From: Patescibacteria group bacterium
GTDB lineage: Bacteria > Patescibacteriota > Patescibacteriia > UBA10025 > JAHIVO01
DNA: 64,000 bases
Assembly: GCA_041666685.1 (NCBI GenBank)
Contig: JBAYGJ010000001.1
Location: 31,749 to 95,748 of the forward strand
Reading direction: 5' to 3'
Both the position numbers and the translations under genes were made by a program. Numbering within the stretch: the stretch's first letter is position 1; each line of letters starts with the position of its first letter. Below are positions 1,043 to 63,481 of the stretch, in pieces. The notes beneath the pieces are model-generated. The model searched no databases. It saw nothing but the letters and a program-made list of their open reading frames with translations, and was not told the DNA's origin.

Positions 1043-1062
1043 ATATACTTTTTTATCTTTTA

Positions 1063-1572: not shown

Positions 1573-1586
1573 AGTATGGCAATTAC

Positions 1587-2132
1587 TTAATAATCTATGG
1601 ACGGCCTGGCGAGTATTCCTTTGGTAAACGGATGCTTGACCATTTGTATATCCGAGACATAATCGGCCAATTGTATTATCTTAGCTGGTGCCTGCCGTCC
1701 TGTCAAAACCAATTCCACATGAGCCGGTTTTCCCTTGATCAAACTCATAACTGACTGTGCGGTTACTAGCCTCTCCTTAATTGCCACATGTATCTCGTCC
1801 AAAATGACAACACCATACCGACCGGATTGTACAGACCGTCTAGCCACTCGTAATGCGCGTTGGGCTGCCTGCTGATGAACACGTAACGGTTTCCGATCAC
1901 CTAATATTTTAACAAACCCCTCGCCGAGTGCCAGGATTTCGAGAAATGGTGCAAGTTTCTTTACGATATCAAGTTCGCCAGAACGCCACGGGCCCTTAAT
2001 GAACTGCACCATCAGCACTTTTTTTCGATAACTGATGGCGCGCAACGCCAAGCCAAGGGCGGCTGTGGTTTTCCCCTTGCCATTGCCCGTATAGACATGC
2101 ACCAAGCCTCTGTCTATCTTTTTAAATTTCAT
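1587..2132 (-). CDS. cobO: cob(I)yrinic acid a,c-diamide / cob(I)alamin adenosyltransferase (CobA/CobO/BtuR family)
   Basis: P-loop-like HVYTGNGKGKTTAALGLALRA. The size (181 aa) and sequence fit the CobA/BtuR family. It is adjacent to the AdoCbl-dependent RNR. Confidence 0.75.
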   Translation of the reverse strand: MKFKKIDRGLVHVYTGNGKGKTTAALGLALRAISYRKKVLMVQFIKGPWRSGELDIVKKLAPFLEILALGEGFVKILGDRKPLRVHQQAAQRALRVARRSVQSGRYGVVILDEIHVAIKERLVTAQSVMSLIKGKPAHVELVLTGRQAPAKIIQLADYVSDIQMVKHPFTKGILARPSIDY

Positions 2133-2147
2133 ATCATCTCAACTATA

Positions 2148-4448
2148 TTATCCGAGACTACAAGCAGAAAACCCGCATTTAGGACACACCGAGCATCCCT
2201 CTTTGATCTCCATGTTCGTCTTGCATTCTGGGCACGTTTCGATCACATGGCTTCGGCGGGCAGCGCTTGCGACCGGGACTTTGACCGACTCACTCGATGT
2301 TTTCACGGTCGGTATAGTTACTGCGCCACTGCGGAGGTCTTCATAATTATAGCTGAATGATTTTTTCGATTCCTTGTGCTTGACTGAGCCGATGTTCAGT
2401 ACCTGTACGTCACGCGATCGGTCCCGGTAAATAGTCACGCCTTTGCATCCTTGCCGGTAAGCCAGCATATACACCTCTTCAACATCCTCAACTTTTGCGT
2501 CATTCGGAAAATTAACCGTTTTGGAAACTGCATTATCAGTAAACTTTTGGAACACGGACTGCATTTTCAGATGCCACTCCGGTGTAATGTCATGGGAAAC
2601 CACAAACAGTCTCTGCCATTTGGCCGGCACTTCATCCATGCCCTGGACTCCGCCATGTTCGGCGATTTTCTTCATAAGTTCTTCAGTAAAAAATCCTTCA
2701 CGGCGGGCAATATATTCAAATAACGGGTTCACTTCAATGAGCTCATTATCATCCATGACATTGCGGATGTACGAGATGGCGAACAGCGGCTCAATTCCAG
2801 ACGAACATCCGGCGATGATGCTGATGGTGCCAGTCGGTGCGATGGTATTGGTCGTTGAATTACGCATCTTCGGCGCACCCGGTTTGTCGAAAATACTCCC
2901 TTCAAAATTCGGAAACTGTCCGCGGTCCTGCGCCAAATCCTGAGACATTATCTTTGATTCATCGGCAATAAATTTCATTATTTTCTCGCCTAATTCCACC
3001 GCTTCCCGGCTGTCATACGGTACGCCCAGCATGATCAATACATCGGCCCATCCCATCAGGCCAAGGCCAATCTTCCTGTTGTCATGCACCATATTGGTAA
3101 TCTGCGGCAGCGGATAGTGGCTCATATCAATGACATTATCCAGAAAATGAATGGCCGTGCGTATGGTCGTGCGCATCTTGTCCCAATCAATCTCCACAGT
3201 TTCACCGACTGAAAAATCACCTTTGACCATCTTGGCCAAATTCAATGAACCGAGATTGCATGCCTCAAATGGCAGTAATGGCTGCTCGCCACATGGATTC
3301 GTGGCTTCCATTTCGCCGACTTTGGGCGTGGGATTATCGTGGTTAATCCGGTCGATAAAAACAATGCCCGGATCCCCATTTTTCCAGGCCAACGTGACAA
3401 TCAGGTCAAATACCTTGCGTGCATTCAACCGGTCCACGACCGTCTTGTCCTTGGGGTTCAACAGGTCGTAGTCAGTGTTCTGTTCGACGGCTTTCATAAA
3501 ATCTTCAGTCACGGCTACGGAAATGTTAAAATTATTCAAACGGTCATTATTCTCCTTGGCGGTAATGAATTCTAAAATATCCGGATGGTCGACCCGCAAA
3601 ATACCCATATTCGCCCCTCGACGGGTGCCACCCTGTTTAATGGTCTCAGTCGCCGCATCAAACACGGTCATGAACGATACCGGTCCTGAGGCCACGCCTT
3701 TCGTTGACATGACGCGGTCGTTTTTTGGGCGGAGCCGCGAAAACGAAAATCCGGTTCCACCGCCTGTTTTATGCACCAAAGCGGTCCATTTCACCGCATC
3801 AAAAATCTCCTCCATGGAATCACCGACCGGCAACACGAAACAGGCCGCCAGCTGCTGAAGTTCCTTGCCCGCATTCATCAATGTCGGGGAATTCGGGACA
3901 AACTCCAGCCGAGAAAGGACCTGATAAAATTCATCCTCAGTTTTTACCAAATCAATTTTCTGGTTCAAAAGCGAATCATACCGGGCGTCAGCTTGGGCGA
4001 TATTGGCGGCTACGCGGCGGAACATCTGAGGCGGTGTTTCAATGACCTTGCCGTTTGGATCCTTGCGCAGATACCGCTTGGAGAGCACGCGCAATGAATT
4101 CACAGACAGATTCGTATCCAGTTCAGGTAGGCCCAAATACGATCCCTTGGCGGCGCGGATCTTCTGGTGCTCTTTTCGATATAAAATATAAGCTTTCGCT
4201 AATTGGATTTGTTTTTCCTTGATCAGGACTTCTTCAACAATATCCTGAATCTGCTCGACTGTCGGGACCGTTGTGCTGTCGTACTTTTTCTCGAGGACGC
4301 CGACCACCTTTTTGCATAGCTTCTCGGCCAGCTTCTGGTCCTCCTGCTGGATGGATACCGTCGCTTTGTAAATTGCGTTTGTGATCTTTTCCAAGTCAAA
4401 CTCCACGACGACGCCCGAACGTTTACGTATCTTGTTTATTTTTACCAT
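2148..4448 (-). CDS. nrdJ: Ribonucleoside-diphosphate/triphosphate reductase class II (adenosylcobalamin-dependent), with N-terminal ATP-cone and C-terminal Zn ribbon
   Basis: 766 aa. It has an N-terminal ATP-cone (VVEFDLEKITNAIYKA). The catalytic core is class II RNR-like (NPCGEQPL..., GLMGWADVL). The C-terminus is CPECKTN...CSVCPKCG. Confidence 0.85.
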   Translation of the reverse strand: MVKINKIRKRSGVVVEFDLEKITNAIYKATVSIQQEDQKLAEKLCKKVVGVLEKKYDSTTVPTVEQIQDIVEEVLIKEKQIQLAKAYILYRKEHQKIRAAKGSYLGLPELDTNLSVNSLRVLSKRYLRKDPNGKVIETPPQMFRRVAANIAQADARYDSLLNQKIDLVKTEDEFYQVLSRLEFVPNSPTLMNAGKELQQLAACFVLPVGDSMEEIFDAVKWTALVHKTGGGTGFSFSRLRPKNDRVMSTKGVASGPVSFMTVFDAATETIKQGGTRRGANMGILRVDHPDILEFITAKENNDRLNNFNISVAVTEDFMKAVEQNTDYDLLNPKDKTVVDRLNARKVFDLIVTLAWKNGDPGIVFIDRINHDNPTPKVGEMEATNPCGEQPLLPFEACNLGSLNLAKMVKGDFSVGETVEIDWDKMRTTIRTAIHFLDNVIDMSHYPLPQITNMVHDNRKIGLGLMGWADVLIMLGVPYDSREAVELGEKIMKFIADESKIMSQDLAQDRGQFPNFEGSIFDKPGAPKMRNSTTNTIAPTGTISIIAGCSSGIEPLFAISYIRNVMDDNELIEVNPLFEYIARREGFFTEELMKKIAEHGGVQGMDEVPAKWQRLFVVSHDITPEWHLKMQSVFQKFTDNAVSKTVNFPNDAKVEDVEEVYMLAYRQGCKGVTIYRDRSRDVQVLNIGSVKHKESKKSFSYNYEDLRSGAVTIPTVKTSSESVKVPVASAARRSHVIETCPECKTNMEIKEGCSVCPKCGFSACSLG

Positions 4449-4466
4449 ACTATTATCAATTAGTAT

Positions 4467-4937
4467 TTATTTTCTTTTCGTTCTCCGATTGCTGATCAGC
4501 TTACGGAGCTCATGTTGGAATGTTTGCGCGTCCTTGAACGACCGATAGACCGAGGCGAAACGGATATACGCAACCTCATCCTTCTTTTTCAGGTGCTTCA
4601 TGATTATTTCACCGATCTGGCTGCTTTTGATCTCCTCTCGGCCGACCATCTGGATGTCTCGTTCGACTTGGCTTACTAGCCGCTTGAATTCGTCCTGGGT
4701 AATAGGACGCTTTTCGAATGATTTTTTTAAACCGGACTCTAGCTTGTCTTTGGCATACGGCTCCCGATGCCCATCACGCTTGATGACGGTAACATTCAGT
4801 ATTTCCGCTTCCTCATAGGTAGAGAAACGAAAGCCGCAGCGCAGGCACCGGCGGCGTCGCCGAATGGCCATGGCGTCATTAACCAGGCGGGAATCACTTA
4901 CTTTAGTGTCCGCATAATGGCAAGCTGGGCATTTCAT
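4467..4937 (-). CDS. nrdR: Transcriptional repressor NrdR
   Basis: MKCPACHYADTKVSDSRLV...CLRCGFRFSTYE Zn ribbon followed by an ATP-cone. It is 156 aa and sits directly upstream of nrdJ. Confidence 0.9.
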   Translation of the reverse strand: MKCPACHYADTKVSDSRLVNDAMAIRRRRRCLRCGFRFSTYEEAEILNVTVIKRDGHREPYAKDKLESGLKKSFEKRPITQDEFKRLVSQVERDIQMVGREEIKSSQIGEIIMKHLKKKDEVAYIRFASVYRSFKDAQTFQHELRKLISNRRTKRK

Positions 4938-12089: not shown

Positions 12090-15000
12090 CTACCTACAGG
12101 CATTCGCATCTTGGCATGGATCGGCGCCCCTGGTAATTGCTTCAACAATACGCTGAATGGCAGGAATCGGTCCTGTCGTCCCCCATGATGAGATATACCT
12201 ATGAATTCCGATCGGCAAACTCGCACCAGCATATAACGTCGTACCATCTGCATATAATGAATACACAGCCTGTTTTCCGGCAATTGTGGTAGATAGCCAC
12301 GTATTCCCGTTATCATTTGAACGGTATACGATGCCATTTGGAGTAGACCCGACAAATATCGCAGTCCCAAATCTTGCAATACTTAAATATGAATTTGCCC
12401 CACCGCTTGGATTACGGTCAGTCCACGTTGCCCCATTATTATTAGTGTAATGGACTAGGCCTAACGCTCCACTGGTCACAACATACAGAGTGCTATTTGC
12501 TTCATTATAATACATATCATTAATGGCCGATTCCGTAGCGGCAAACCTCCCTATATTCGTCCAGGTTACCCCGTCATCAGTTGATCGGAAAACTGCAGGC
12601 CCAGTTGCCGAGCCGGACGTACCGGCATACAAAGCACTCGGCGTGGCAATTAAACTCTCGATCCGCGGATCCGTCACAGAACCCGTCAAAGTCCATGTAT
12701 TTCCCGCACTGAGCGTTGAATACACCGCGCCTCCACCGCCTGCCGCAAAAACTTTTCCGCTCTTATAAGCCAATGGCGATATGGATATATTAAAAGCCGC
12801 GCTCCTGCTCCAGGACTCAGTTCCGCCGTCGCACGTCCTCCAAACATAACCCCGAATTGGACTGTATGCGTTGCCTGATACATACAGACAGGCACCGACA
12901 GGCTGGATATCTTCCAAATTTGTCTGTCCAGCGGGCTGATTTGTGGTCAGTACCCACGAAATTGCATTATTTATGGATTTATACACGACCGCTGCCATGG
13001 AAGTCGTGTTATTTCTGGCAGTAGCGAATAACGCTGTCGGACCGCTGTACGGAGGATTGACAGTGAGCCGAAGTGTTTGTGTATCTGATAGGCCGGTGGA
13101 GTCCGTCGAGGTAAGCGTGATATTATACGTCCCAGCCGTGGTCGGTGTGCCGGTAATACGGCTGCCGCTGAAACTGAGGCCGGCTGGTAGTGGTGCCGCA
13201 GTGAATGTGATCGGCGGCGTGCCACCCGAAGTGATAATCTGGTAGGAATAATAATCACCGACAGACGCGATGCCAGTCAACATACTGATAATCAAAGGGA
13301 CATTGGCCGAGCATTCCAAAGGACATAAATCATTGGACTCTGGCGGAGCGTCGCAGGTCCCGTTGGCATTGCAGATCGGCCGTCCGGGGATATTCTCCAG
13401 CTCAGAGGCATTCATCTGGACATCTCGTGCCTGGATATCCACCCACATCACCGTTTCCTGGTTTGATGTCCATGTCCCGCTGTATCGTCCGGATATATTA
13501 TCGCCGGAAATCCTGCCGAGCGGGATGGAAATGCGCGGAACTAAATCTGTTTCATCGGGATTTTGGACGAGTGCGACTGGAGGTGAGCTCGTATCGTCGA
13601 CGCCGTCAGTGTCGCTGATGTCGGCATAAAAAGTGAACACTGTCCCGACTGCGCCTGTTTCTGGAGTCATAAAGGCATTTTCAATAGTCGGGCCGCCGGG
13701 ACCGCGGACATTATAATTACGTTCAATACTGGTACTGCGGTTACCTCGCGCATCAAGCGCGTCCACCTGGAACGAATGCCAGCCGTCTGAAATCGCCCGG
13801 GTATCCACGACCCACTCTGTCGGCTGGCCTGCCAGGGCTGTCTTACGCAACACATGATCCAGGTAAAAATTTACCCGATTTATTCCATAATTATCCGTCG
13901 CCGTCACCCGGAGGGTAATGGACTGGTCAACAGAAGTCCCCTCATTGGGCGTCGGCGGAGCATCAAACACGACAGTCGGTGCCTGATCGTCGTCCTGAGC
14001 TACATCCACCGGTAAAAATATCGTCGAAGTGGTCACATTACTGGCATCATCAAAGGCATAGGTCGAAACCTGGTGTCCTGCACAGGTCAATCCCGGACTT
14101 AACAGCTGGCATTCGCTGGTCTCATTACATTGGGTCCCGCGCCCATTTGTGACCACGCATCGATCGCCCGACTGCGGACAATCACTGTCGCTGATACACG
14201 CCTGGCCACCGAGTTGGCACTGGCTGGCGCAGACCCCCCTGGACAGGCCGGCCGTACTCCAATTCCAGTCCCAGACGAATGCACACACGCCCGGCGCGCA
14301 GGTAGAATTGTCCGTACATAATGCGTTTGGCGCTACACTACAGTTGCCTTGGGCCCGACGGATACCGTCGCTTTTAAATAGCCCATCCACGTAAAACTTC
14401 ACCTGGTTGACCTGCTTATTGTCCGACGCCACTACCGGCACAGCCACTGTACCGCTCCGCAGACAGATCAGATTATCCGCTGGGGCATAACTGTCTTGGC
14501 ACACCGCGGCAGTATTCGATTGGTCACAGCTAACGTCAAAATTACAACGGGCACCATCAGGGCAGGTATGAACATAATCACATGCCACATCCGGATCGGC
14601 CGGATCTTCTTTCTGACACAACCCCTCGCCGCACCGGCCTTCAATATTATTGAAACTTACCTGTGGAGGAGTGGGATCAAGGTTATCGACATTTATCAGG
14701 ATGGACGTGGTCCCTGTGCGGCCGCCGCTGTCCCTGGCGATCGCAGAAATGGTGTATTGGCCATTGGCGACACGGGTGGAATCCCACGGCGGCGAATACG
14801 AACAACTCAGGGTCGTGCTGGCATTGCCGGAGCACGAATAGCTGTCCCCATTTGAGATATTAATCGTCACGTTATCGACCTGCCGGTTATCCGTAGCCAG
14901 GGCATTGATCTGCACTCCATAGCTGGTCGACGAACGGACACGCAATATCCTGTTACCGCTGTCTGTGATATACAAATAATTTCCGGATATGGCCACATCT

Positions 15001-18000
15001 TCCGGAGCAACAATATTTTCCAGATCCTGCGGTCCGGCATTATTTCCGAAAATAAAGATTTTCCTGGAAAGGTTGGTATCAAGAGCGGAAATGACATTCC
15101 CGGCGTTTTCCGTCACATACACCGTCGATCCGTCAACATGTATCCCGTCAGGGACGTTTAATTGGTTGGGACCATTGCCGTTTATGCCGGTGCCAAAAAC
15201 GGCGCCAGGCACCAGATTTAGGTTGGAGTCCAATTTGAACACCTGGCCGGTGTTCCGTTTGCTGACATACACGTTACCGGCGCTGTCTGTATCGATTCCG
15301 TTCACGCCGTCACTCCCAAAATCATAGTGATGCTCGATGGTATTTGTCACCGGATCGAAAATAACGACTGTCTGGAAATAAATAATTGCTGCAATTTTCC
15401 CGTCCGGGCGTCCGACGGAATGAGTTACGCCAAACTGCGGCAACGCCCCGCCGGTTTCATCCACAGCCCCGAGGTTATAGACCGCCTTTGGCGCCTGGAG
15501 AGGCGTCATGCTCGGATCAAACCTCAAAACCCGCCGGGTGCCCACAGGTGCCGGAGTATACGTTACCAACAGGTCGCCGTTTGAGTGATCCAGGCCGACA
15601 TGCCATGCTATCTGTGAAGAGGGCGATAATCCCAACGCATCAAAATCAAAAGTTCCTAAATCCACGCAACTATCCAGATTGCTGTTGCACCGGCGGAGAT
15701 GCGCCGGATCTTCCCAATAGGTCACATAATAAATATATCCATTGTTAGAAGCCTCAAGGCTATGAATGCCCGCAGTATCCACAGCCTTGTCCGGCAAAAA
15801 CGATATGGTACGGTTGGAAACGGTATCCCCGTCTTTTGGCGATGTAATGGTGACAAACGGATTGGTTGTATCCGGCTGGCCGCTATTGTCGATGCGAACC
15901 GCATATTCCTTGTCCGTCTGATTATCCGCATTATCAAACGCCCGGACCCGGACCGTATGGGCGCCGTCGGAGAACCTAGTTGTATTGAAATCCCAGCTCC
16001 AGATGGCGCTGTCCGTATCAGTAAACGTACGGATACCGTCAACATAATACTCTACCCGGTTTACGCCTGACCCAACGTCTGTCACCGTCGCATTCAGGAC
16101 ACGGGTTCCGCTCACCGCGGTTACGGCATTCTCAACCAGCAAATCGACATCCCCGATGACCGGGCCGACATGGTCAGCAGCTGAACCAGTGACATTATAT
16201 TCATAGTTAAAACACGGACACTGCGCTTCAGTCATACCGACACATTTATCTACTACCGGATCGGCGACCAGATACCACTCCCAATTACCCTCTGCATTAA
16301 CCAATAAATGAACATTTTCCAAATGAGCAAGCAGACTGGCCCGGCTGCCCGTGGCATTGCCCAAATATTGGTAGACAAACGAACCGCCCGGACACTGGTA
16401 TGTTTTTAGCGTTTCATTCCAGCAGGTATTCTGGTCATAGCCCGTGCCGCACAATGTCGGCGGATCCTCCACGATAAACTTATCGTACGGATCGCCCGGC
16501 AAATTGCCGCCGAGTGCCGCCCCAAGCGTCTCCTGCCAGGACGGCCATTTGGACGTGGAAAGCATCTTGACGTATGATCCGCCCTCAAGTTTCGGGAAGT
16601 AACCATTATCGGTGCGGTAGATCATCAGTTTCTCGTAGATGGACGACAGGTCATTGATCCGCCGCATATCGCGCTGGACCTGCTCCTTTTCGGTCTGTGT
16701 GATGTTGATGCTGAATTCCCAATTCTCAATCATCCGGTTGTAGATGCTGACTGTTTCGTCAGACGCGCCCTCGTTATATGAAATCAAATATATATTCGGA
16801 TACAGCCGGCCGAGATTGCCTGGATTCCAGGCGGCGACATACACGCTCCGTCCGGCCCGTACTGCGGCGTACCCATCCACTGTCAGATCCTGGGGTTGTG
16901 GCGCAGCCGGTCCAAACTGGCCATAGTACCAATCGTGGGGCGACTGGTTGCTTTCGTTCTCGTAGACCCGGATGCCGATAGCGTCGTCCGTATCCGCACG
17001 GGTGAAGAAAAATTCCCTGATCAGCTCGTTTTTCTTGTTGCCGAATTGATAGCTCCCCGCTTTGACAATCACGTCGCCAGTCGGCGCCAGTGATGGCAAG
17101 GCGCCGGGATCACGGCAGTACGAGATAGAAAAATTCGTGACAGTATCAGTATATGGGAACGTGTCTGCCGGCACAGAGAAGGGGTTCGGCCACGGGTGTT
17201 CGCACACATTGACCGTCACTCGAGCAGAAGATGTTTTTGTACCGGTGAAGAATTCCGGATCAAATGAGGCATTGACCGTCGTCCGGCCGTTCTTGTTCTG
17301 GGCCGTCAGCCATCTGGAAAAATCCCCCAATGGAGTCAGTTGGGCGATCGACGTATCGCCAATTGAAAAAGTAGCCGTCGAATTGACGGGATTATTATTT
17401 TTATCATATGGTATCGCCTCCACTATATGTTGGTTGCCATTAACAGCACCCAAGTCGTCACTGCAATCTGTCGGTGCGGTACACGTAAATATATCAGGTG
17501 GGTTATAAAATGGGGTATCAGCATTTACGAAAGTCCAGATAACGTGGTCAATCTGACAGATGGACGCCAACGGATCCACATCCCATTCAAATAACCGCCA
17601 GTTGTCCACAATGTTTGTCCAGGTGATGCCCCGCTCACTTTTTATAATATCGGTGCGCAAATTAATATCTATCGCCGTGCCAACATGCAGGGCCACAGTC
17701 GGCGAAACAATGAATCCGTTGATGATTTTCTTAACTGTAAACGCAACTGGCGCAAGGTTTTCGGTCAGGGTGACAGAGTCACCAACGACGACCGAAGTCA
17801 TGTCAATATCCTGGTCAAACTTGATGATAAACGAGTTATTCAAACAGATGAGCGGCGAGTCCGGCGGAACCACGTCAGGCTTGATGGAGACAAACTGCGG
17901 CCGGGCATAACAACAAGTACTCTTGCCGCACGCGATCGTCCCGGTCCCGTCCTCATCGCACTGGGCATCGCCGGTCGCGGTATCCTCATAATCACACCCG

Positions 18001-21000
18001 CAATATAATCCCCGATTGCCGCTGACGCATGCTCCCTGATCAGCAGTACACTTCAGGCCATTTTTATTGAGCTGTACCAGATTGGTCCCGTCACCGTTGA
18101 CATCCGTCGTGCAGCAGGTCAGGCAGGGCGAAGATGCTGGTGGCGGATATACCCGACTCATCACAAGAGGATCCCCCTGGCTATCCGGAGCTAAATGCCC
18201 GTCAGGATCAATGCATCGATACGAACTCGTACCTGAAACAGTCTTCCCTAGCTGACATAACGTCGCATCACGATGCTCCTGGTCATCCAATTTGCATGGA
18301 TCGCCTGGCCCACCTGAACTGCAGGCAGCGTTATCAGCCTGGCATTCGTGATCCAGGCAGCAGCCGGAACTGCATTCTCCGGGGTTATCGCAATAAATTC
18401 CGATATTAATGCCATTGGACGGGCAATACGCCCCAGTGCCATCGCCGACAGAAATCCTGGCCGGACCGGGGTCAGTGTTAACGGGGAGCGTTGCGTCAGA
18501 AAATGTTGTCCCGTCAGCGCTGGCAGTACCGTCCGGGGAATCAATATAACCCGCGCCCTGCGTAAACTCGGCTTTTACCGGTAGCGCGTCGTGTGTAGTC
18601 AGGTTGAACCCCATGAAATCCACCGGGCTGCCGATTCTTTGCACTAACGGAGTAATTGAACACAAACCCGGTACGGCGATATTATTGCATGTGTCATTGA
18701 TATCAAAAGTGATATTTTGGTGGCTGTCATCAATATTGCTCAGCCCGGCCGCAGTTCGGACTTCCACAGAATTCGTTCCCAGGCCGACAGTTTCAGGAAT
18801 GGTAGTGATGATCTGACTGTCCTTCCATGGAGCCGCGCAGAGGAACAACCCTTCATTCGCCACATCGAACAATACCTTGCTTGTGCCGGCCACATAACTC
18901 CCGAAATAGCACCCGTTAATGGTAATAGTCTGGCCGCGCGGACCGCCGGGGACAGGAGGAGGACTGATACTGTTGATCACCGGCGTGCACCGGTTTATAG
19001 TTAAATCGCACACACTGCCGACGCACTGCCCCTCTTTCGCACAATCAAAACCAACATCGCAATAATCCAGAATCACACTCAGTTTGGCCTGGCCGGTCTT
19101 CCCTGCCGTATCAGCCTGTATATATGTATAGCCCGGCGCGACGTCAGAAACGGCTGTCGCGGTTGCTTGGTACGGCGGCTGGGGAGGTGCTGACGCGACA
19201 GTCGCTATGGCCAAGACAGTAGATACCCAATTCCAGCTATAACTGGCCGGATTCATAAAAGTACAGTTAGGACCGAGCGGTACCGAGCTGTAATCCTGGG
19301 TGGCGCCGATAGTGGTCAGAATCCTATTTGACGGTGTCACCAGGACACGGCTAACTGGACAGGCGTCCGTACCTGTCTGCGTCTTCACAGTCCACGCATA
19401 ATCATTCACCATCTTCACATTCGTGATACTGCGGACTTCCTTGCTGATAGTCACTCTATAATAGTGGTCTGGGGTCAGGTCTGCTGTCGGTATCATCCGG
19501 AAACTCGTCTTCCCTGCATCATCGGAGGCAGAAAAATTTACATCTGGTGGGGTGATATCAACCGGTACCGGGTTCGTGCAGGTACTATCATTGGCGCAGT
19601 CATACAGGCCAATAGTGCTGCTATCCAATGTCGCGTGGTTCATCAACGTGGTAAATGTCGCGCCGAATACCGCATTCAGGCAGACATTTGTCGTGCCCTT
19701 ATACGGGTTTGGCGACGGGATGGTGTCAGGCAAGCACGCGCCACCGTCACAGTCAGTAGGATCATTGCAACTATCACCGGCATTGGCCGAGGCTGCATCG
19801 CATGTGAAACTGCAGGCTGTAGTTTCATATACTTTCGGCACACCGCCGCACGGTACTTCAAAAGGCAGGGCATTGCTCCCCCCGTTCACGTTTCGGGCAC
19901 TAACCTTATATGGGTTCTCGGCATTATCAAGATCGGGCGTTGTCACTGTGATCTGGCCATCTGTCCAGTTCGCAAGTGGCGGCACTACTGAAACTGGAAG
20001 ATCAAGTCCCAGAACAAAATTCACGCTACGGTCAGCGGGCGGGTCGAATGTCTCGCCAGTCAATGTCAGCCCCACGCCTTGGACGCCGCATACCGGCTGG
20101 ACCTGGCACAATCCCGGACCGGCCGCCTCATTGGTATAAACAAATGTAACAATATTGCTTCGTGTCCCGTCTGATTTGACCAACTGAACGCCAACCTGAC
20201 TGTTTGCTGGGCAATTAGACCACTTCCCTTCTGGTGCTGTGGCGGGATCGCAAACAGTGGCAATGAGTGAGAGGTCAGGCACTTTTACAATTGCCGATGT
20301 ATTGGTCCAGGTGGCATCACAGGGCGGGTCGGGGGGGGCTGCAGCTAATATTTCATCTCCATTCGACATATCACGGAAAAAAACCTGCCCGGCAATGCAG
20401 TCGTCCGGATCAACACAGAATCCGGCATTTGAATCGTTGCGTTTGATTACCGAAACATACTGGCCAATGCCGCCATGCGGCTGGTCATTAAGCCCGGACA
20501 CTTCGCCGATCTGCGGACTGGTCACGTCGAAATCTGACGCGTTGCTGTCGGTGACACAGCGCCCGCCGGGACAATCCGCCGCTTCATTCAGTTTGGTACA
20601 TGTCCGATTGTCGTTAACGCCGCCTTCGCATACGCCCGGATCGATCGTGACTTTCACGCCGCCGTCTTTTGCGCCATTGGACGGGATGATGCCGCCGATA
20701 TTCACCGGTCCACCAGGCACCCTGGTCTGAATAGCGGTCCCGTTCCACGAGACGTTGCAATTCTGGCTTGGCCAGTTCGCAACACTAAAACAATTCCCGC
20801 TGTCGAGCACGCCGTTATTGAACGCCACATCGCCGCCAATCCCGAAATTAGTGCCATTAATCTGTATCGCCGGGTCAGCCGGGGTGCTGTACCGTCCAAA
20901 ACTCGGGACAATATCAACTATCTCGGGAATACATCGCGTATTGGTTGAATCTGTATCAGCGGTAAAATTCCACGGTTCAGTGGGGAAGGTGGGGTTAGTG

Positions 21001-22418
21001 CTTGCTGGAACTTCGGACAGGAAATTATCCCCTCCAACAGTGCCATCCTCAGTGCCGTTTTCATTGCCGTCCAGGTGGTTCTTGCAGACATCCATAATAC
21101 CCTTACCTGGATCTTTGTAATCAGGGCTGTTTTGGTCATTGGTGCCGGCAATAAGTTCGACACTGTACTGGTCGCCGGTCGCCATCGGTTCGAAGGGCCT
21201 AGTCGTAAACAGCGTGACACCGCTGGAAACGCTGAACGGAGATCGCAACCGCTGGTCAGTGCCCGCACTCGTATTGCGGAATTTTACTGTAGCCAGACAG
21301 GTCTCGGGAGCCGGACAGTCACCATCGATCAGGCAGGATATTTTGGCCACCGAACAGTAGCCGGCATGGATCGAGGAGGCGCGCATCTTATTTGAAAACC
21401 GTTCCTGGATCGGCGAATTCAGACAAACATTTGTAGCGTTGTCATCCGGATATATTTGCGTGACCGTGGGCGGGTCGGTTAAGTTTGTATTCCCAGTCGT
21501 AAAAGTCCAGATACTGGCCTCCGTATCTCGCAACGGCGGGTCGGTTTCCAGCACCGTCTCATTGATCTCGACACGGTAGGTGGTATTGAATAAATAATTT
21601 GCGGTTGGGTCAAATTCAAGGATAGATGCGTCAGCCGGCGCCAGACTCCATACCCCAGCGACCCTATCGCCGACACATTGGGACGTCCCGGCATCGCAAA
21701 CTCCAGAACTGCATTCATTGTCGTTGGCGCATGGGCCACCAGCACCCTGTCTAGCCTCATGGACATAAACCCCGACATTAGGCTCGACAATAGTTGTCGG
21801 ATCGAAATTACCATTGTATTGTGCCTGGATCATGCTGCAAACCGGAATATTAGATTCATTAAATCCAGGATCAACCCATTTCCGGTGGAAAGTTTCAGTA
21901 TCTTCACCGAGACAACGCATTGGATTATTTGTCGGGTCGTATACAGAAAATGCCGTACCGGCCGCATTACAGTCATAGCAGCCAAGTTCGTCACCGGGGC
22001 CACAAATCGTCACACCGGGACCATTAATTATGTCATTCAACCGGCCGATAATGAAGGTCACGATCGCCCAGGCCAACATGATGATCACCAAACCGATAAC
22101 CGCATCCCGGAGGATGCGTTTGGCTTTCCTGATCTTTTCCTCATTACCCGCTGCGGTCAGCCAGACAAAACCGCCGTACATGATGATGATAACCGCCACG
22201 AGTCCGAGCAGGCCTAGCGCCCACTGGAGAATCTTTATCACCGTAGACTCCAGGTCGGCGGTCCCTAGCCCGAGGGTGCTGCCGACATTCTGGTCGACAG
22301 TAACAGCCAGCGACGGCGAAGATGTGAGCCAGAAAGCAGCCACCAGAAAACCGGCGAACACCACCAAGCCCAACAGGGCTCCCAGAAAAAATGTATTTTT
22401 ATTTGTACGCGCCCTCAT
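12090..22418 (-). CDS. Giant (3442 aa) cell-surface protein: N-terminal signal/TM plus VirB2/TrbC-like (CPR T4SS-pilin-like) two-helix hairpin, Cys-rich modules, multiple Big-type Ig domains, He_PIG-type Ig domain, NHL beta-propeller, C-terminal BNR/Asp-box propeller
   Basis: It is a single uninterrupted 10.3-kb ORF. The N-terminus is MRARTNKNTFFLGALLGLVVFAGFLVAAF (signal-like), followed by ILQWALGLLGLVAVIIIMYGGFVWLTAAGNEEKIRKAKRILRDAVIGLVIIMLAWAIV (helix-loop-helix pilin-like). It has the NHL repeats NVYVSKRNTGQVFKLD and YLYITDSGNRILRV (~14940-15640), Ig-like modules (VTATDNYGINRVNFYLD), a He_PIG module (PPITFTAAPLPAGLSFSGSRITGTPTTAGTYNITL, ~13020-13270), and the BNR motifs STDDGVTWTN, NNNGATWTD and SNDNGNTWLS (12090-13000). 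Confidence 0.75.
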   Translation of the reverse strand: MRARTNKNTFFLGALLGLVVFAGFLVAAFWLTSSPSLAVTVDQNVGSTLGLGTADLESTVIKILQWALGLLGLVAVIIIMYGGFVWLTAAGNEEKIRKAKRILRDAVIGLVIIMLAWAIVTFIIGRLNDIINGPGVTICGPGDELGCYDCNAAGTAFSVYDPTNNPMRCLGEDTETFHRKWVDPGFNESNIPVCSMIQAQYNGNFDPTTIVEPNVGVYVHEARQGAGGPCANDNECSSGVCDAGTSQCVGDRVAGVWSLAPADASILEFDPTANYLFNTTYRVEINETVLETDPPLRDTEASIWTFTTGNTNLTDPPTVTQIYPDDNATNVCLNSPIQERFSNKMRASSIHAGYCSVAKISCLIDGDCPAPETCLATVKFRNTSAGTDQRLRSPFSVSSGVTLFTTRPFEPMATGDQYSVELIAGTNDQNSPDYKDPGKGIMDVCKNHLDGNENGTEDGTVGGDNFLSEVPASTNPTFPTEPWNFTADTDSTNTRCIPEIVDIVPSFGRYSTPADPAIQINGTNFGIGGDVAFNNGVLDSGNCFSVANWPSQNCNVSWNGTAIQTRVPGGPVNIGGIIPSNGAKDGGVKVTIDPGVCEGGVNDNRTCTKLNEAADCPGGRCVTDSNASDFDVTSPQIGEVSGLNDQPHGGIGQYVSVIKRNDSNAGFCVDPDDCIAGQVFFRDMSNGDEILAAAPPDPPCDATWTNTSAIVKVPDLSLIATVCDPATAPEGKWSNCPANSQVGVQLVKSDGTRSNIVTFVYTNEAAGPGLCQVQPVCGVQGVGLTLTGETFDPPADRSVNFVLGLDLPVSVVPPLANWTDGQITVTTPDLDNAENPYKVSARNVNGGSNALPFEVPCGGVPKVYETTACSFTCDAASANAGDSCNDPTDCDGGACLPDTIPSPNPYKGTTNVCLNAVFGATFTTLMNHATLDSSTIGLYDCANDSTCTNPVPVDITPPDVNFSASDDAGKTSFRMIPTADLTPDHYYRVTISKEVRSITNVKMVNDYAWTVKTQTGTDACPVSRVLVTPSNRILTTIGATQDYSSVPLGPNCTFMNPASYSWNWVSTVLAIATVASAPPQPPYQATATAVSDVAPGYTYIQADTAGKTGQAKLSVILDYCDVGFDCAKEGQCVGSVCDLTINRCTPVINSISPPPVPGGPRGQTITINGCYFGSYVAGTSKVLFDVANEGLFLCAAPWKDSQIITTIPETVGLGTNSVEVRTAAGLSNIDDSHQNITFDINDTCNNIAVPGLCSITPLVQRIGSPVDFMGFNLTTHDALPVKAEFTQGAGYIDSPDGTASADGTTFSDATLPVNTDPGPARISVGDGTGAYCPSNGINIGIYCDNPGECSSGCCLDHECQADNAACSSGGPGDPCKLDDQEHRDATLCQLGKTVSGTSSYRCIDPDGHLAPDSQGDPLVMSRVYPPPASSPCLTCCTTDVNGDGTNLVQLNKNGLKCTADQGACVSGNRGLYCGCDYEDTATGDAQCDEDGTGTIACGKSTCCYARPQFVSIKPDVVPPDSPLICLNNSFIIKFDQDIDMTSVVVGDSVTLTENLAPVAFTVKKIINGFIVSPTVALHVGTAIDINLRTDIIKSERGITWTNIVDNWRLFEWDVDPLASICQIDHVIWTFVNADTPFYNPPDIFTCTAPTDCSDDLGAVNGNQHIVEAIPYDKNNNPVNSTATFSIGDTSIAQLTPLGDFSRWLTAQNKNGRTTVNASFDPEFFTGTKTSSARVTVNVCEHPWPNPFSVPADTFPYTDTVTNFSISYCRDPGALPSLAPTGDVIVKAGSYQFGNKKNELIREFFFTRADTDDAIGIRVYENESNQSPHDWYYGQFGPAAPQPQDLTVDGYAAVRAGRSVYVAAWNPGNLGRLYPNIYLISYNEGASDETVSIYNRMIENWEFSINITQTEKEQVQRDMRRINDLSSIYEKLMIYRTDNGYFPKLEGGSYVKMLSTSKWPSWQETLGAALGGNLPGDPYDKFIVEDPPTLCGTGYDQNTCWNETLKTYQCPGGSFVYQYLGNATGSRASLLAHLENVHLLVNAEGNWEWYLVADPVVDKCVGMTEAQCPCFNYEYNVTGSAADHVGPVIGDVDLLVENAVTAVSGTRVLNATVTDVGSGVNRVEYYVDGIRTFTDTDSAIWSWDFNTTRFSDGAHTVRVRAFDNADNQTDKEYAVRIDNSGQPDTTNPFVTITSPKDGDTVSNRTISFLPDKAVDTAGIHSLEASNNGYIYYVTYWEDPAHLRRCNSNLDSCVDLGTFDFDALGLSPSSQIAWHVGLDHSNGDLLVTYTPAPVGTRRVLRFDPSMTPLQAPKAVYNLGAVDETGGALPQFGVTHSVGRPDGKIAAIIYFQTVVIFDPVTNTIEHHYDFGSDGVNGIDTDSAGNVYVSKRNTGQVFKLDSNLNLVPGAVFGTGINGNGPNQLNVPDGIHVDGSTVYVTENAGNVISALDTNLSRKIFIFGNNAGPQDLENIVAPEDVAISGNYLYITDSGNRILRVRSSTSYGVQINALATDNRQVDNVTINISNGDSYSCSGNASTTLSCSYSPPWDSTRVANGQYTISAIARDSGGRTGTTSILINVDNLDPTPPQVSFNNIEGRCGEGLCQKEDPADPDVACDYVHTCPDGARCNFDVSCDQSNTAAVCQDSYAPADNLICLRSGTVAVPVVASDNKQVNQVKFYVDGLFKSDGIRRAQGNCSVAPNALCTDNSTCAPGVCAFVWDWNWSTAGLSRGVCASQCQLGGQACISDSDCPQSGDRCVVTNGRGTQCNETSECQLLSPGLTCAGHQVSTYAFDDASNVTTSTIFLPVDVAQDDDQAPTVVFDAPPTPNEGTSVDQSITLRVTATDNYGINRVNFYLDHVLRKTALAGQPTEWVVDTRAISDGWHSFQVDALDARGNRSTSIERNYNVRGPGGPTIENAFMTPETGAVGTVFTFYADISDTDGVDDTSSPPVALVQNPDETDLVPRISIPLGRISGDNISGRYSGTWTSNQETVMWVDIQARDVQMNASELENIPGRPICNANGTCDAPPESNDLCPLECSANVPLIISMLTGIASVGDYYSYQIITSGGTPPITFTAAPLPAGLSFSGSRITGTPTTAGTYNITLTSTDSTGLSDTQTLRLTVNPPYSGPTALFATARNNTTSMAAVVYKSINNAISWVLTTNQPAGQTNLEDIQPVGACLYVSGNAYSPIRGYVWRTCDGGTESWSRSAAFNISISPLAYKSGKVFAAGGGGAVYSTLSAGNTWTLTGSVTDPRIESLIATPSALYAGTSGSATGPAVFRSTDDGVTWTNIGRFAATESAINDMYYNEANSTLYVVTSGALGLVHYTNNNGATWTDRNPSGGANSYLSIARFGTAIFVGSTPNGIVYRSNDNGNTWLSTTIAGKQAVYSLYADGTTLYAGASLPIGIHRYISSWGTTGPIPAIQRIVEAITRGADPCQDANACR

Positions 22419-60374: not shown

Positions 60375-61787
60375 CTATCTCAGATACCCCCACGTGTGCA
60401 GACGGTCACGGTCGTTTGACCAGGTCATCCCGATGTCTGTCCGGTAAAAAATGTTCGGCACGAGGACATTCTGTGCCCGGCCATACGCAACCCGCCTGGC
60501 TTCTTCCACAGTAGCACCGCTTCCGGTAACCACCAGCACGCAGCCAGAAGTGCCGGCAACGCGCCACACATCGTCCACTTTTTTGATATCCTCAATATGG
60601 ATCCCCTCTATAGTCGGGCGCGTTTTGAACGAAATGGCTAAGTCGCGGTATGTCCTCACTAATTCAGTATGGGGCTCCTGGGAAAAATAGGTCGGCAGCA
60701 GCAGGCGCACGCCCAACTGAAACCCGCGTTTGGTGTCAATCTGAAAATCTTCGCCATTCGCCATCCGGTGGAGGAATTCCCCGATCGGCATCTCAATTCC
60801 TTCCAACTGGATATGGATAGTCGGGTATCCGAAACGGCAAGTGAACTCCAGTGGATAAATGCCCCGTGCATTTACGATGCAATTGATGTCGACATACCCG
60901 ACATACCGGGATGCCTTAAGCGCTGAATGCATCGGCAATAAAATTTCCCTGAACAGGTTATTTGGGGTCGACCAGTACATCAGCGTCCCCATCTCACCGG
61001 TAAATGGGCCAAGATTCCCCGGGAAAATCCGTTTGTGTTCAAAATTGATATTGATCGGATACAGGAAATCATGCCCGTTGAAATAGGCTCCGACTGCTAC
61101 CTCCACTCCTGATACGTACCGCTGCAGGACAAAATGGGGAGCCCGCTGGCGCCAAATTTGCTTATTATTCTGAAAAAGTTCCAGCAAATCACGGCCATCT
61201 TCCTCCTGGCCGATGAACAGCAGGCTTTTTGGCGCACTGCCGCTCGGCTTAAAAACATACCGGGATGGGTGGGCTTTGATAAATTCTATGGCTTTATCAT
61301 AATCGTCAAACTGCCACCACCGAAGCGTATTGATATCATGTTTCTTGAGCTCGGCCTGGCCAAATTCCCGGTCATCCTCCAGCTGGTCAGTGTACTCACT
61401 GCCGCCAATCACCAGCTTCCCGCGCTGCCGCAATTGATCAGCCTGCACGCCGAATCCGACGTCATCAAAAACGATCACATCTGCCCAATCAACCTCCGGC
61501 TCCCATACTTTCACCTTTTCCACAAAGCCGTCATACACATCTGCATCATCAGGATTGGAAATATATACTTTCACGCGATGCCCCTCAAGCTGAAGGCGCC
61601 AGGCCAGATCGCCGCTGACGCTCTCTTTCGATACAAACAAGAATTTCTTTATAGGATAACCACCCATATGCAAAGACATCCCATTGACTCGGGGCGTCAT
61701 GCTTTCTGAAAACTTGCCGTTTCCAGTCTGATTGTTATGTGGGTTTTTACCGTCAGGTGGTTTTTCTTGGTTCATACCTTGTGCCAT
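60375..61787 (-). CDS. purD: ATP-grasp enzyme of the phosphoribosylamine--glycine ligase (PurD/GARS) family
   Basis: GIYPLEFTCRFGYP matches PurD KVIEFNCRFGDPE. FTGEMGTLMY matches GPNTGGMGAYSP. The C-terminus GCVLVVTGSGATVEEARRVAYGRAQNV...FYRTDIG matches the PurD C-domain. There is a ~40-aa N-terminal extension and the start is uncertain. An alternative ATG sits at 61667. Confidence 0.55.
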   Translation of the reverse strand: MAQGMNQEKPPDGKNPHNNQTGNGKFSESMTPRVNGMSLHMGGYPIKKFLFVSKESVSGDLAWRLQLEGHRVKVYISNPDDADVYDGFVEKVKVWEPEVDWADVIVFDDVGFGVQADQLRQRGKLVIGGSEYTDQLEDDREFGQAELKKHDINTLRWWQFDDYDKAIEFIKAHPSRYVFKPSGSAPKSLLFIGQEEDGRDLLELFQNNKQIWRQRAPHFVLQRYVSGVEVAVGAYFNGHDFLYPININFEHKRIFPGNLGPFTGEMGTLMYWSTPNNLFREILLPMHSALKASRYVGYVDINCIVNARGIYPLEFTCRFGYPTIHIQLEGIEMPIGEFLHRMANGEDFQIDTKRGFQLGVRLLLPTYFSQEPHTELVRTYRDLAISFKTRPTIEGIHIEDIKKVDDVWRVAGTSGCVLVVTGSGATVEEARRVAYGRAQNVLVPNIFYRTDIGMTWSNDRDRLHTWGYLR

Positions 61788-61915: not shown

Positions 61916-62128
61916 CTATTGGACATTCCTTGACTTGCCTGGGATGGTAACCGCCATATAGACAGCGGATACACCGACCAGGCTGTACACGATCCGCGAT
62001 AAAGCGGACATGTCACCAAAGATAGTTTCGACTAGGTCAAACTTGAATAGTCCGACGAGGCCCCAATTGAGGGCTCCGACGAGTACCAGGATCAAGGCGA
62101 CCCAATCGACAGCATTCATCTTTTTCAT
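61916..62128 (-). CDS. DUF378 family small membrane protein
   Basis: 70 aa with two TM helices. The conserved LVGALNWGLVGLF motif is typical of DUF378 (YuiB-like). Confidence 0.7.
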   Translation of the reverse strand: MKKMNAVDWVALILVLVGALNWGLVGLFKFDLVETIFGDMSALSRIVYSLVGVSAVYMAVTIPGKSRNVQ

Positions 62129-62146: not shown

Positions 62147-62551
62147 TTATTCTGGAATGAGTACGGAATCAATCACATGAATAACTCCGTTATCGGCAGT
62201 AATATCGGTTTTAAGGACTTTTGCCTCACCGATCTTTACTCCATTATCTGAAACGGTAATTGGCAGCGAACCGCCCTGTACTGTAGCGAGAGACTGTTGT
62301 TTGACGACATCGCCAGCAAGCATCGAACCGCTGACCACATGATAGGTCAGTACTGCAGTCAGCTTGGCTTTGTCCTCAAGCAATGATTCAACGGTACCGG
62401 CTGGCAACTTGGCAAACGCCTCGTCGGTAGGGGCAAATACGGTAAATGGACCAGGACCAGAAAGGGTAGGCACCAGATCTGCGGCTTTGACCGCTGCCAC
62501 CAGTGTCTTGAAGGTGCCTGCCTTTACCGCTATATCAACGATAGTAGACAT
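62147..62551 (-). CDS. Fasciclin (FAS1) domain protein, no recognisable signal peptide
   Basis: [25 protein letters not shown]...[13 protein letters not shown]...VLTYHVV is the FAS1 H1/H2 region. The 134-aa ORF begins directly in the domain. Confidence 0.75.
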
Positions 62552-62583
62552 AATTGTTTTTAGTTAGTTTGTTAACGTGCTAC

Positions 62584-62596
62584 TGCAAGCCTTGCA
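62584..62596. promoter_or_regulatory. Perfect inverted repeat TGCAAG-c-CTTGCA in the divergent fasciclin/regulator intergenic region (candidate operator)
   Basis: It is centred about 37 bp upstream of both divergent start codons. A second, weaker ATGCA-aaacg-TGCAT repeat overlaps the regulator ATG. AACGTGC occurs twice, at 62574 and 62633. Confidence 0.4.
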
Positions 62597-62626
62597 TGAA
62601 TAAAGGATACCTGGTAACATAAAAAC

Positions 62627-63481
62627 ATGCAAAACGTGCATTTGAGCCCACCGGAATTAGCTCCCCTTTTCGGGGTCAACGTATCCACTATCAAACGATG
62701 GGTGGACAAAGGTTTTATCCAATCTGTTAAAACATCCGGCGGTCACCGGAGGATTTCGCGGGAACAGTTGGCAGCCTTCGTCCAGCGATACCCGGATCAC
62801 GTACACAACTCGTATGTCCTGTCCCGGCTGTTGAAAAATAAACAGACCAGGCTGAAAGATTGGCAAAAATATTACCGCCACCTCCACCAAAACGAAGTAC
62901 GGCAGGCAGAACAGCAGGTCCAGCAACTCTACCTAGCCAACGTGCCAATCGCCACAATTCTGGATGAAGTCATCGCGCCCGCGTTGCGCCACATCGGGGA
63001 CGAATGGTTTGCCGGTCATGTGTCCGTTTTTGAGGAACATAGGATGAGTTTTATCGTCAGGGTACAATTACTTAAACTAGACCAGCTCATTCCCGATCGA
63101 ACCGATACACATTCTCCACTCGCCATCCTGGCCTGTGCCGCCGGCGACCATCACGAGCTCCCTTTACTGATGGTCGGGCTGATATTAAAAAGAAACGGCA
63201 GGCGTACGACCAACTTAGGCATAAACATCTCTGCTTCCGAAATGGACAAAGCCTGCCGCCTCCTCAAGCCACAATTGGTCTGCCTGACAAAAACATACAG
63301 CCAAGGCCAAAATGCCTCGGCGTACCTGGCTCATATCAAACCAATGATAAAAAAAATTAAGGCTCGCCTGATTATCGGCGGTAATGGCTGGCCAGCATCA
63401 TTACAAAAAAAATCACAAGACACCCGATATCGTTACATCCCTGATTTAGGGGCATTGGACGGATATCTCAAGAAAAATTAA
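62627..63481 (+). CDS. Transcriptional regulator: N-terminal excisionase/MerR-like HTH plus C-terminal cobalamin (B12)-binding domain (CarH/LitR-like)
   Basis: HTH: LSPPELAPLFGVNVSTIKRWVDKGFI. B12-binding helical-bundle motif: HIGDEWFAGHVSVFEEHRMSFIV (WxxG...EH..S). Rossmann B12-binding motif: ILACAAGDHHELPLLMVGLIL (DxHxxG) and IIGGNGWP. Confidence 0.7.
   Translation: MQNVHLSPPELAPLFGVNVSTIKRWVDKGFIQSVKTSGGHRRISREQLAAFVQRYPDHVHNSYVLSRLLKNKQTRLKDWQKYYRHLHQNEVRQAEQQVQQLYLANVPIATILDEVIAPALRHIGDEWFAGHVSVFEEHRMSFIVRVQLLKLDQLIPDRTDTHSPLAILACAAGDHHELPLLMVGLILKRNGRRTTNLGINISASEMDKACRLLKPQLVCLTKTYSQGQNASAYLAHIKPMIKKIKARLIIGGNGWPASLQKKSQDTRYRYIPDLGALDGYLKKN

Follow-up and report, generated by a model that had tools for sequence, protein, structure and literature searches.

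A CarH-like regulator with a BldC-type head and a candidate direct-repeat operator over its own start codon in Patescibacteria

What does a cobalamin-binding regulator sense in an ultra-small bacterium, which DNA does it bind, and which genes does it control? These questions are raised by a 284-amino-acid (aa) protein encoded in a 64,000-nucleotide (nt) stretch of Patescibacteria DNA (GenBank assembly GCA_041666685.1, contig JBAYGJ010000001.1, positions 31,749 to 95,748), which we refer to, at its full length, as “the window”. Known B12-based photoreceptors are mainly CarH and LitR, i.e., MerR-type repressors of carotenoid genes, and an earlier sequence-only reading of the window had likened the 284-aa protein to them. 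We find that the regulator is CarH-like in its sensor half, but that it is no CarH orthologue and has another DNA-binding head. By sequence comparison, the most likely operator of the regulator family is a 9-bp direct repeat, which in the window lies over the start codon of the regulator’s own gene. The gene and its parts, in window coordinates, are as follows.

62627..63481, plus strand: regulator gene, 284 aa (open reading frame (ORF), Pfam and PDB matches, AlphaFold2 fold)
62642..62788, plus strand: winged helix-turn-helix (HTH; residues 6–54), BldC-like (Pfam HTH_17, BldC match)
62867..63049, plus strand: four-helix-bundle part of the cobalamin-binding module (residues 81–141), with W127-x9-E137-H138 (Pfam PF02607)
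63122..63385, plus strand: Rossmann-type B12-binding domain (residues 166–253), with D174xH176xxP179-x41-T221xT223-x27-G251G252 (Pfam PF02310)

All three domains score above their Pfam gathering cut-offs: HTH_17 at residues 6–54 (E 4e-10; 40.1 bits against 27), B12-binding_2 (PF02607) at residues 81–141 (30.5 bits against 23) and B12-binding (PF02310) at residues 166–253 (34.8 bits against 32.1). The best sequence match in the PDB is CtMerR (8jbs, E 1.9e-24), with the HTH and the cobalamin-binding module both aligned; CarH of Thermus thermophilus (TtCarH) matches with an E of 5e-11. An AlphaFold2 model, made with an alignment of 41 homologues as input, has a predicted local distance difference test score (pLDDT) of 92 and a predicted template modelling score (pTM) of 0.88. 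Its top Foldseek matches are full-length TtCarH, the cobalamin-binding domain of CtMerR (target-normalised TM-score 0.75–0.80) and the light-responsive cobalamin domains known as photocobilins.

A search of 5.8 billion proteins yielded about 100 clusters at 35–88% identity to the regulator; where a source is named, it is Patescibacteria or Kerfeldbacteria. A second tier of relatives, at 26–30% identity, includes a Marinimicrobia-named cluster. Both tiers retain residues W127, E137, H138 and H176 as well as the GG pair. A scan of genomes turned up 182 loci with a gene for a relative, and we compared 79 distinct loci of about 12 kb each: 34 from Patescibacteria (L001–L033 and L035) and 45 distant, FCB-group ones (L034 and L036–L079), which belong to Ignavibacteria, Bacteroidota, Marinimicrobia, Calditrichia, KSB1 and others. 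The closest relatives are L001 and L002, with 87–88% protein identity.

The sensor half has the residues expected of an AdoCbl (adenosylcobalamin) photoreceptor. The Wx9EH motif of the CarH/LitR four-helix bundle, which caps the adenosyl group, is present as G124DEW127-x9-E137-H138, and W127, E137 and H138 align with W131, E141 and H142 of TtCarH. Similarly, H176 aligns with His177, the lower ligand of TtCarH. Among 100 sequences of the Patescibacteria tier, W127 is retained in 93, E137 in 97, H138 in all 100 and H176 in 95. The B12-binding motif of the CarH family has been given as D/ExHx2G/P-x41-SxT/V-x22-27-GG (PMC9304148), and the regulator follows it, including the His lower ligand; position 221 is T in the window regulator, and of 100 family sequences, 48 have S there and 38 have T. 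The sequence-only reading had named a DxHxxG motif and a GG motif. The latter is confirmed (G251G252); the former reads D174-H-H176-E-L-P179, i.e., DxHxxP, and holds in the CarH-family form D/ExHx2G/P. PMC11796333 gives a SignatureFinder signature of light-responsive cobalamin domains consisting of GxxW, EH, GxxH and GxxxP, of which three elements are present in the regulator (G124DEW, E137H138 and G173DHH176). There is no His after the Trp in the alignments, so no bis-His light adduct is expected. Pfam, PDB alignment, conservation and the AlphaFold2 fold together bear out the CarH/LitR domain logic, and the AdoCbl-photoreceptor motifs, that had been read from the sequence.

The head is another matter. 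The score against the NCBIfam CarH equivalog NF052513 (TransRegCarH) is 70.9 bits, far under the cut-off of 400, and this, together with a BldC-like head, is why we do not consider the regulator a CarH orthologue. When the N-terminal 69 aa are compared alone, the best PDB match is to the BldC-DNA complexes 6amk/6ama (E 1.5e-7; residues 6–56, 51 residues); CtMerR matches with an E of 3.8e-6, and TtCarH's DNA-binding domain barely matches (E 0.25). The NCBIfam excisionase domain TIGR01764 scores 38.3 bits against a cut-off of 28.8, and HTH_BldC scores 41.9 bits, under its cut-off of 77. The HTH is near-invariant across both tiers (VNxSTIKRW...TxGGHR[RK]). The CarH-type RxWERRY recognition helix is absent; the regulator has VSTIKRW, and its best Pfam family is HTH_17. 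Judging by these matches, the DNA-binding domain appears to belong to the BldC/excisionase type of winged HTH, unlike the classical MerR type of CarH, in agreement with the excisionase-type HTH proposed earlier.

Each BldC protomer binds one 9-bp direct repeat, head-to-tail (PMC5859096). A repeat with this period is found at the start of the regulator gene.

62623..62640, plus strand: candidate operator AAACATGCA-AAACGTGCA, a tandem direct repeat of period 9 (cross-locus conservation)

The repeat spans −4 to +14 relative to the ATG, and so comprises the ATG and codons 2–5. It is near-invariant in the upstream alignment of the 34 Patescibacteria loci, with the consensus AAAC[A/G]TGCA-AA[A/T]C[G/A]TGCA-TTT from −4 to +16; it begins 2 nt past a conserved −10 box, at a fixed distance across loci. 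The constraint on the repeat acts at the DNA level, not on the protein, for three reasons. First, codons 2–5 each use a single codon (CAA in 31/31, AAC in 25/25, GTG in 27/27 and CAT in 30/30), i.e., they are without synonymous variation in 31 loci whose proteins share 35–50% identity, whereas invariant HTH residues use two to six codons (N18 has AAC in 11 and AAT in 20; V17 uses four codons and R24 six). Second, in L028, L031 and L035 the same repeat DNA is not part of the regulator ORF: it precedes the real ATG, out of frame, with GTG replacing ATG and an unchanged distance to the −10 box. Third, the full repeat has a single copy per locus and a single copy in the 64-kb window. The candidate operator thus doubles as the start codon and codons 2–5, a regulatory site that would dictate which synonymous codons its own gene uses. 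A lone AACGTGC unit (62574–62580) was considered as a third site and dropped, because it is lost in L002.

In the three loci with the displaced repeat, there is a mini-ORF of 8–9 codons (VQNVHF..; L028:764–790, L031:5951–5977 and L035:5957–5986), whose TGA overlaps the regulator ATG (ATGA). This arrangement suggests a leaderless upstream ORF that is translationally coupled to the regulator.

The 9-bp period extends to the distant loci. In 19 of the 45, a perfect 7-mer occurs twice, offset by exactly 9 bp, within the 200 nt upstream, as compared with 0–2 loci for other offsets (6–8 and 10–14) and 3% of control windows for such a repeat. The unit differs by lineage (CGTGCA, CGGGCA or CGCTCA), both units of a site are of the same variant, and some sites have four units. 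Since CGCTCA repeats lack self-complementarity, the feature of the family is a direct repeat, not an inverted one. The 9-bp repeats also occur in the divergent regions between regulator genes and carotenoid operons and before TonB/Plug genes, and one locus (L070) has two repeat sites in opposite orientation. The distant regulators have the same HTH_17 plus B12-binding architecture at 26–30% identity and a near-identical recognition helix; compared between loci of the CGTGCA and CGCTCA types, this helix hardly differs and revealed no clear specificity code. Two differences stand out. The distant loci have carotenoid-gene neighbours and never fasciclin or DUF378 genes, with crtI (phytoene desaturase-type), crtB (phytoene synthase) and lycopene cyclase genes adjoining the regulator in 20/45, and their repeats lie in the 5′ regions of leadered genes, not over the start codon. 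Carotenoid genes are the classical light regulon of CarH and LitR. The 9-bp repeats of the distant loci and the head-to-tail binding of 9-bp repeats by BldC are what make the 9-bp direct repeat, in our judgement, the most likely operator.

In three distant loci of Marinimicrobia/Calditrichia type, CGCTCA repeats precede non-regulator genes (L042:1487–1535 and 9451–9466; L047:1512–1527 and 9412–9427; L050:5920, 9898 and 12647), which encode TonB/Plug receptors, NmrA-like proteins and large secreted proteins. Their recurrence hints at a multi-operon regulon.

How does the proposed operator relate to the promoter? The regulator and a divergent fasciclin-domain gene have ORFs 75 bp apart, and we infer a promoter for each from conservation.

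62592..62620, plus strand: predicted regulator promoter, with −35 TTGCAT at 62592–62597, a 17-nt spacer and −10 TAACAT at 62615–62620 (conservation)

Across the 34 Patescibacteria loci, cTTG is conserved at −35 to −33, together with an extended −10 box, TGnTAnnnT, whose last T (−7) is invariant. The −10 box ends 6 nt before the ATG, from which we predict a leaderless regulator mRNA. The putative fasciclin promoter is on the minus strand (TTGCAG at 62583–62588, 16 nt, TAACTA at 62561–62566, then ATG). An 8-nt perfect inverted repeat, TGTTTTTA / TAAAAACA, is found at 62555–62562 and 62620–62627, i.e., both divergent genes have TAAAAACA just before the ATG, which suggests similar promoter or start regions. 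Several genes in the window have a TATAAT-like hexamer a few nt ahead of the start, and among 50 long ORFs in the window only 6 have GGAG, GAGG or AGGA within 22 nt of the start; the lineage may widely use leaderless or Shine-Dalgarno-independent initiation.

The sequence-only reading had placed the operator elsewhere, in a perfect TGCAAG-c-CTTGCA repeat in the centre of the 75-bp divergent region. The repeat is indeed there.

62584..62596, no strand: palindrome TGCAAGcCTTGCA, an exact inverted repeat

A symmetric MerR/CarH-like dimer bound to this palindrome could control both divergent genes. The 6+6 repeat is perfect and has no second copy in the window (expected number, allowing up to one mismatch, 0.18), and it overlies both putative −35 hexamers, the right arm overlapping that of the regulator and the left arm the possible one of the fasciclin gene. 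Conservation in related genomes, by which that reading had proposed to judge the operator, does not uphold it: of the relatives, L001 and L002 alone retain the palindrome, altered at one or two positions, and it is missing from the other 31 loci, one of which (L003) has a different palindrome. Between −60 and −21, a palindrome with arms of 5 bp or longer is found in 8/34 loci, barely above shuffled sequences (12%), and conservation at −35 is limited to cTTGC[GA]T. Moreover, BldC, whose DNA-binding domain is the nearest one solved, engages direct repeats in an asymmetric manner and not palindromes, and the family-wide element is a direct repeat. We therefore regard a dimer on the palindrome as improbable. 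The palindrome itself can be explained as two back-to-back −35-like hexamers.

Read on the minus strand, 62584–62601 (ATTCATGCA-AGGCTTGCA) is also a weak copy of the direct repeat: with the repeat matrix it scores 9.6 bits in the window and 13.9 bits in L001, whereas the main site reaches 32.1. No more than five sites of the window score 9 bits or higher. The best intergenic matrix scores exceed background across loci (6/34 above the background 95th percentile; Mann-Whitney p 1.6e-4, in a post hoc test that ignores base composition and the kinship of loci). The palindrome may be an auxiliary site in the window’s clade; it is not a family-wide operator.

The position of the direct repeat at the predicted mRNA 5′ end raises a further possibility, i.e., that the element acts as RNA, as a 5′-terminal hairpin or as a ribosome-recognition element of a leaderless mRNA, and controls translation. 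ATGCA/TGCAT pairing of 5 bp is possible, and the leaderless mini-ORF with its overlapping TGA in three loci would fit such a role. However, the hairpin is weak (−3.4 kcal/mol, z −0.9), and because it is indistinguishable from shuffles it was rejected. FCB-group versions of the repeat (CGCTCA-N3-CGCTCA) lack self-complementarity and yet keep the 9-bp direct-repeat form, and they lie upstream of −35 boxes, on either strand and also before other genes. An RNA role is accordingly very improbable.

A comparison with the three closest known systems shows what is shared and what is not. BldC of Streptomyces (PDB 6AMA/6AMK; PMC5859096) is the nearest to the regulator in its solved DNA-binding domain, and its 9-bp repeats match the period in the Patescibacteria loci and the wider family, where binding is predicted. 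However, BldC is a stand-alone protein of 68 residues without a sensor, whereas the regulator has 284 aa and a cobalamin-binding module, and the BldC repeat consensus, AATTxxxxC, is unlike the repeat in the window. For CtMerR of Chloracidobacterium thermophilum (PDB 8JBS/8JBT), experiments have established that it is a photoreceptor working with AdoCbl, and its DNA-binding domain does not resemble CarH’s (PMC11796333). The GGHRR-type HTH (residues 7–51) and the cobalamin-binding module both align between CtMerR and the regulator, but identity over the module is 23–24% (Foldseek), and CtMerR comes from another phylum and has other neighbouring genes. The accessible text of that paper gives no DNA target or regulon for CtMerR, to which, judging by this part of the source, a 9-bp direct-repeat operator may apply too.

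CarH (T. thermophilus and Myxococcus xanthus) and LitR (Bacillus megaterium) share with the regulator the AdoCbl four-helix bundle and Rossmann domain, Wx9EH and the His ligand, as well as direct-repeat operators over the promoter and a logic of autoregulation or divergent promoters (PMC9304148); in the window, the operator is a candidate and autoregulation is predicted. They differ in their MerR-type RxWERRY head, in place of which the window regulator has STIKRW, and in their neighbours, which are carotenoid genes there and fasciclin and DUF378 genes here. They also differ in the repeat. CarH-type tetramers use three or four tandem repeats of 11 bp (nnnnTnnACAn) that overlap −35/−10 (PMC9304148); the Patescibacteria repeats have a 9-bp period (AAAC[A/G]TGCA; AAACGTGCA in the window) and lie at −4 to +14. 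Our literature search found nothing relevant on CarH in Patescibacteria, or on BldC-cobalamin or CarH-excisionase combinations. To judge from the sequences, the combination of a CarH-like sensor, a BldC-type head and a 9-bp direct-repeat candidate operator in its own start codon is conserved across Patescibacteria and coupled to fasciclin/DUF378 genes. A widespread B12-photoreceptor-like lineage with a BldC-type head would thereby gain a testable candidate operator.

Which genes might the regulator control besides its own? The divergent genes are as follows.

62147..62551, minus strand: fasciclin-domain gene, probable target (134 aa; Pfam Fasciclin E 1.7e-42)
61916..62128, minus strand: DUF378 small membrane protein gene, probable target (70 aa; Pfam DUF378 E 7e-25)
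60375..61787, minus strand: PurD-like ATP-grasp (GARS_A) gene (470 aa; Pfam)

A fasciclin gene, a DUF378 gene or both are divergent and immediately upstream of the regulator in 29/34 Patescibacteria loci and in 0/45 distant loci. Fasciclin is divergent in 21 of the 34 and DUF378 in 24; where there is no fasciclin gene, DUF378 stands in its place. In most loci in which the divergent start can be placed, the gap between start codons is 59–96 nt, mostly about 75 nt. The sequence-only reading had linked the regulator to a fasciclin-DUF378-(PurD-like) set of genes, and this holds for the first two; beyond the window, L001 and L002 are the only loci where the PurD-like gene adjoins them. The PurD-like protein scores 109.9 against a purD equivalog cut-off of 288 and has an N-terminal extension of about 115 residues.

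The fasciclin ORF in the window has no possible extension upstream, and with the domain beginning at residue 1–13 a signal peptide would not fit, in line with what had been noted earlier. About half of the fasciclin partners have a signal peptide or membrane anchor (175–216 aa; L005, L006, L011, L017, L019, L029, L032, L033 and L035), and the rest do not (133–138 aa; the window, L001, L002 and L024–L031). The cellular location of the protein therefore differs between lineages despite the same gene pairing. The window protein is collinear from residue 1 with the fasciclin-fold CupS, a cyanobacterial NDH-1 subunit (E 4e-36), and with Rhodobacter Fdp (E 9e-37), and it matches, more distantly, the carotenoid-binding AstaP (E 7e-12). 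We found nothing published on the function of DUF378.

AdoCbl, on which a CarH-like sensor would depend, is supplied at the other end of the window.

1587..2132, minus strand: cobA adenosyltransferase (TIGR00708, 171.9 bits against a cut-off of 167.75)
2148..4448, minus strand: AdoCbl-dependent class II ribonucleotide reductase, NrdJ (NF006417, 1046.6 against 961; TIGR02504, 742 against 400)

Both genes pass their equivalog cut-offs, and Pfam agrees with NCBIfam on them. The adenosyltransferase that the sequence-only reading had pointed to is thus CobA, and the organism is one of the Patescibacteria that adenosylates corrinoids. The two genes belong to a minus-strand cluster at 500–4937, with nrdR, the reductase (766 aa, ATP-cone), cobA, DUF4430 and a DUF6580 membrane protein, which looks like a module for corrinoid uptake, adenosylation and use. 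Given cobA and the reductase cluster, the cell presumably produces AdoCbl out of salvaged corrinoid and cannot do without it; cobA is its source and the reductase its main use. The only Rfam elements found in the window are four tRNAs, and there is no cobalamin riboswitch among them.

We consider it probable, with moderate confidence, that the regulator is a CarH-like, AdoCbl-loaded autorepressor that acts on 9-bp direct repeats, is relieved by light or B12 shortage, and probably also controls fasciclin-DUF378. CobA would convert salvaged corrinoid to AdoCbl, and the AdoCbl-loaded regulator would oligomerise, its HTH domains binding the two repeats head-to-tail as in BldC. The repeat would cover about −4 to +14 of a promoter whose transcript, being leaderless, starts at or next to the ATG; since the repeat lies over the predicted transcript start, binding should block transcription of the regulator’s own gene. 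Because the divergent promoters share a control region of about 75 bp, binding would probably also affect the fasciclin-DUF378 operon, and in the window’s clade the weak inverted copy at the palindrome, over both −35 boxes, may help. Loss of the adenosyl group in light, or a lack of AdoCbl, would release the regulator and de-repress both the regulator gene and fasciclin-DUF378. Light is the signal suggested by the sensor motifs and by the relatives linked to carotenoid genes.

Several points weigh against this account. We infer DNA binding and repression from comparative genomics throughout. A simple sigma-70 consensus scan calls neither of the proposed promoters, and Shine-Dalgarno sequences are so scarce genome-wide that the absence of one at the regulator says little in favour of a leaderless mRNA. 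Only two repeat units are conserved in the Patescibacteria loci. The case for control of fasciclin-DUF378 consists of synteny, promoter overlap and a weak second site that is clear only in the window’s clade: the full repeat was not found before fasciclin or DUF378 in the window or the loci, the Patescibacteria loci have no conserved motif anchored at the ATG of the divergent gene, and a regulon search of the 64-kb window and the 12-kb loci found no second full copy, only the weak one at the palindrome. For the sensor, the fourth element of the light signature reads G198-I-N-I-S202 in the regulator, without the Pro of GxxxP, which also sets it apart from CtMerR; of 100 family sequences, 49 have Pro and 34 have Ser at the last position. 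Lastly, isolate names hint that some relatives may come from deep mine, groundwater or well samples, and a dark habitat, if so, would exclude light as the signal there, in which case the regulator would in effect report AdoCbl availability.

This last point leads to a variant in which the molecule is the same and the signal is corrinoid supply, with fasciclin-DUF378 repressed when AdoCbl is plentiful and released under B12 starvation. It would suit a cell in which AdoCbl is needed by the only ribonucleotide reductase seen in the window, in which CobA, DUF4430 and DUF6580 genes share one cluster, and for which no riboswitch was detected in the window; CarH-type proteins, too, need AdoCbl to assemble and bind DNA (PMC9304148). 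Nevertheless, Wx9EH separates light-responsive CarH from B12-independent paralogues (PMC9304148), the closest solved relative, CtMerR, is a proven photoreceptor (PMC11796333), and FCB-group relatives adjoin carotenoid genes, the classic light regulon. Corrinoid supply as the signal is accordingly possible but somewhat unlikely, and light and B12 signals are not mutually exclusive.

The light- or B12-relieved autorepressor, our preferred reading, can be extended to a broader picture that we offer as speculation and think unlikely. In carotenoid-less, host-dependent Patescibacteria, a B12-photoreceptor lineage may have been rewired from carotenoid synthesis to fasciclin-DUF378, such that light or the loss of host B12 switches fasciclin on, through an operator set in the start codon and first five codons of a leaderless mRNA. 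If true, surface or cytoplasmic fasciclin might alter how the cell attaches to its host, or might give photoprotection by binding scavenged carotenoids, like the algal fasciclin carotenoprotein AstaP. Ultra-small, uncultured Patescibacteria keep the sensor in at least about 100 sequence clusters, coupled to two genes annotated without a function, and this coupling provides a handle on the cue (light or host-derived B12) to which these symbionts respond. Elsewhere in the window, on the minus strand at 12090–22418, there is a giant ORF of 3442 aa.

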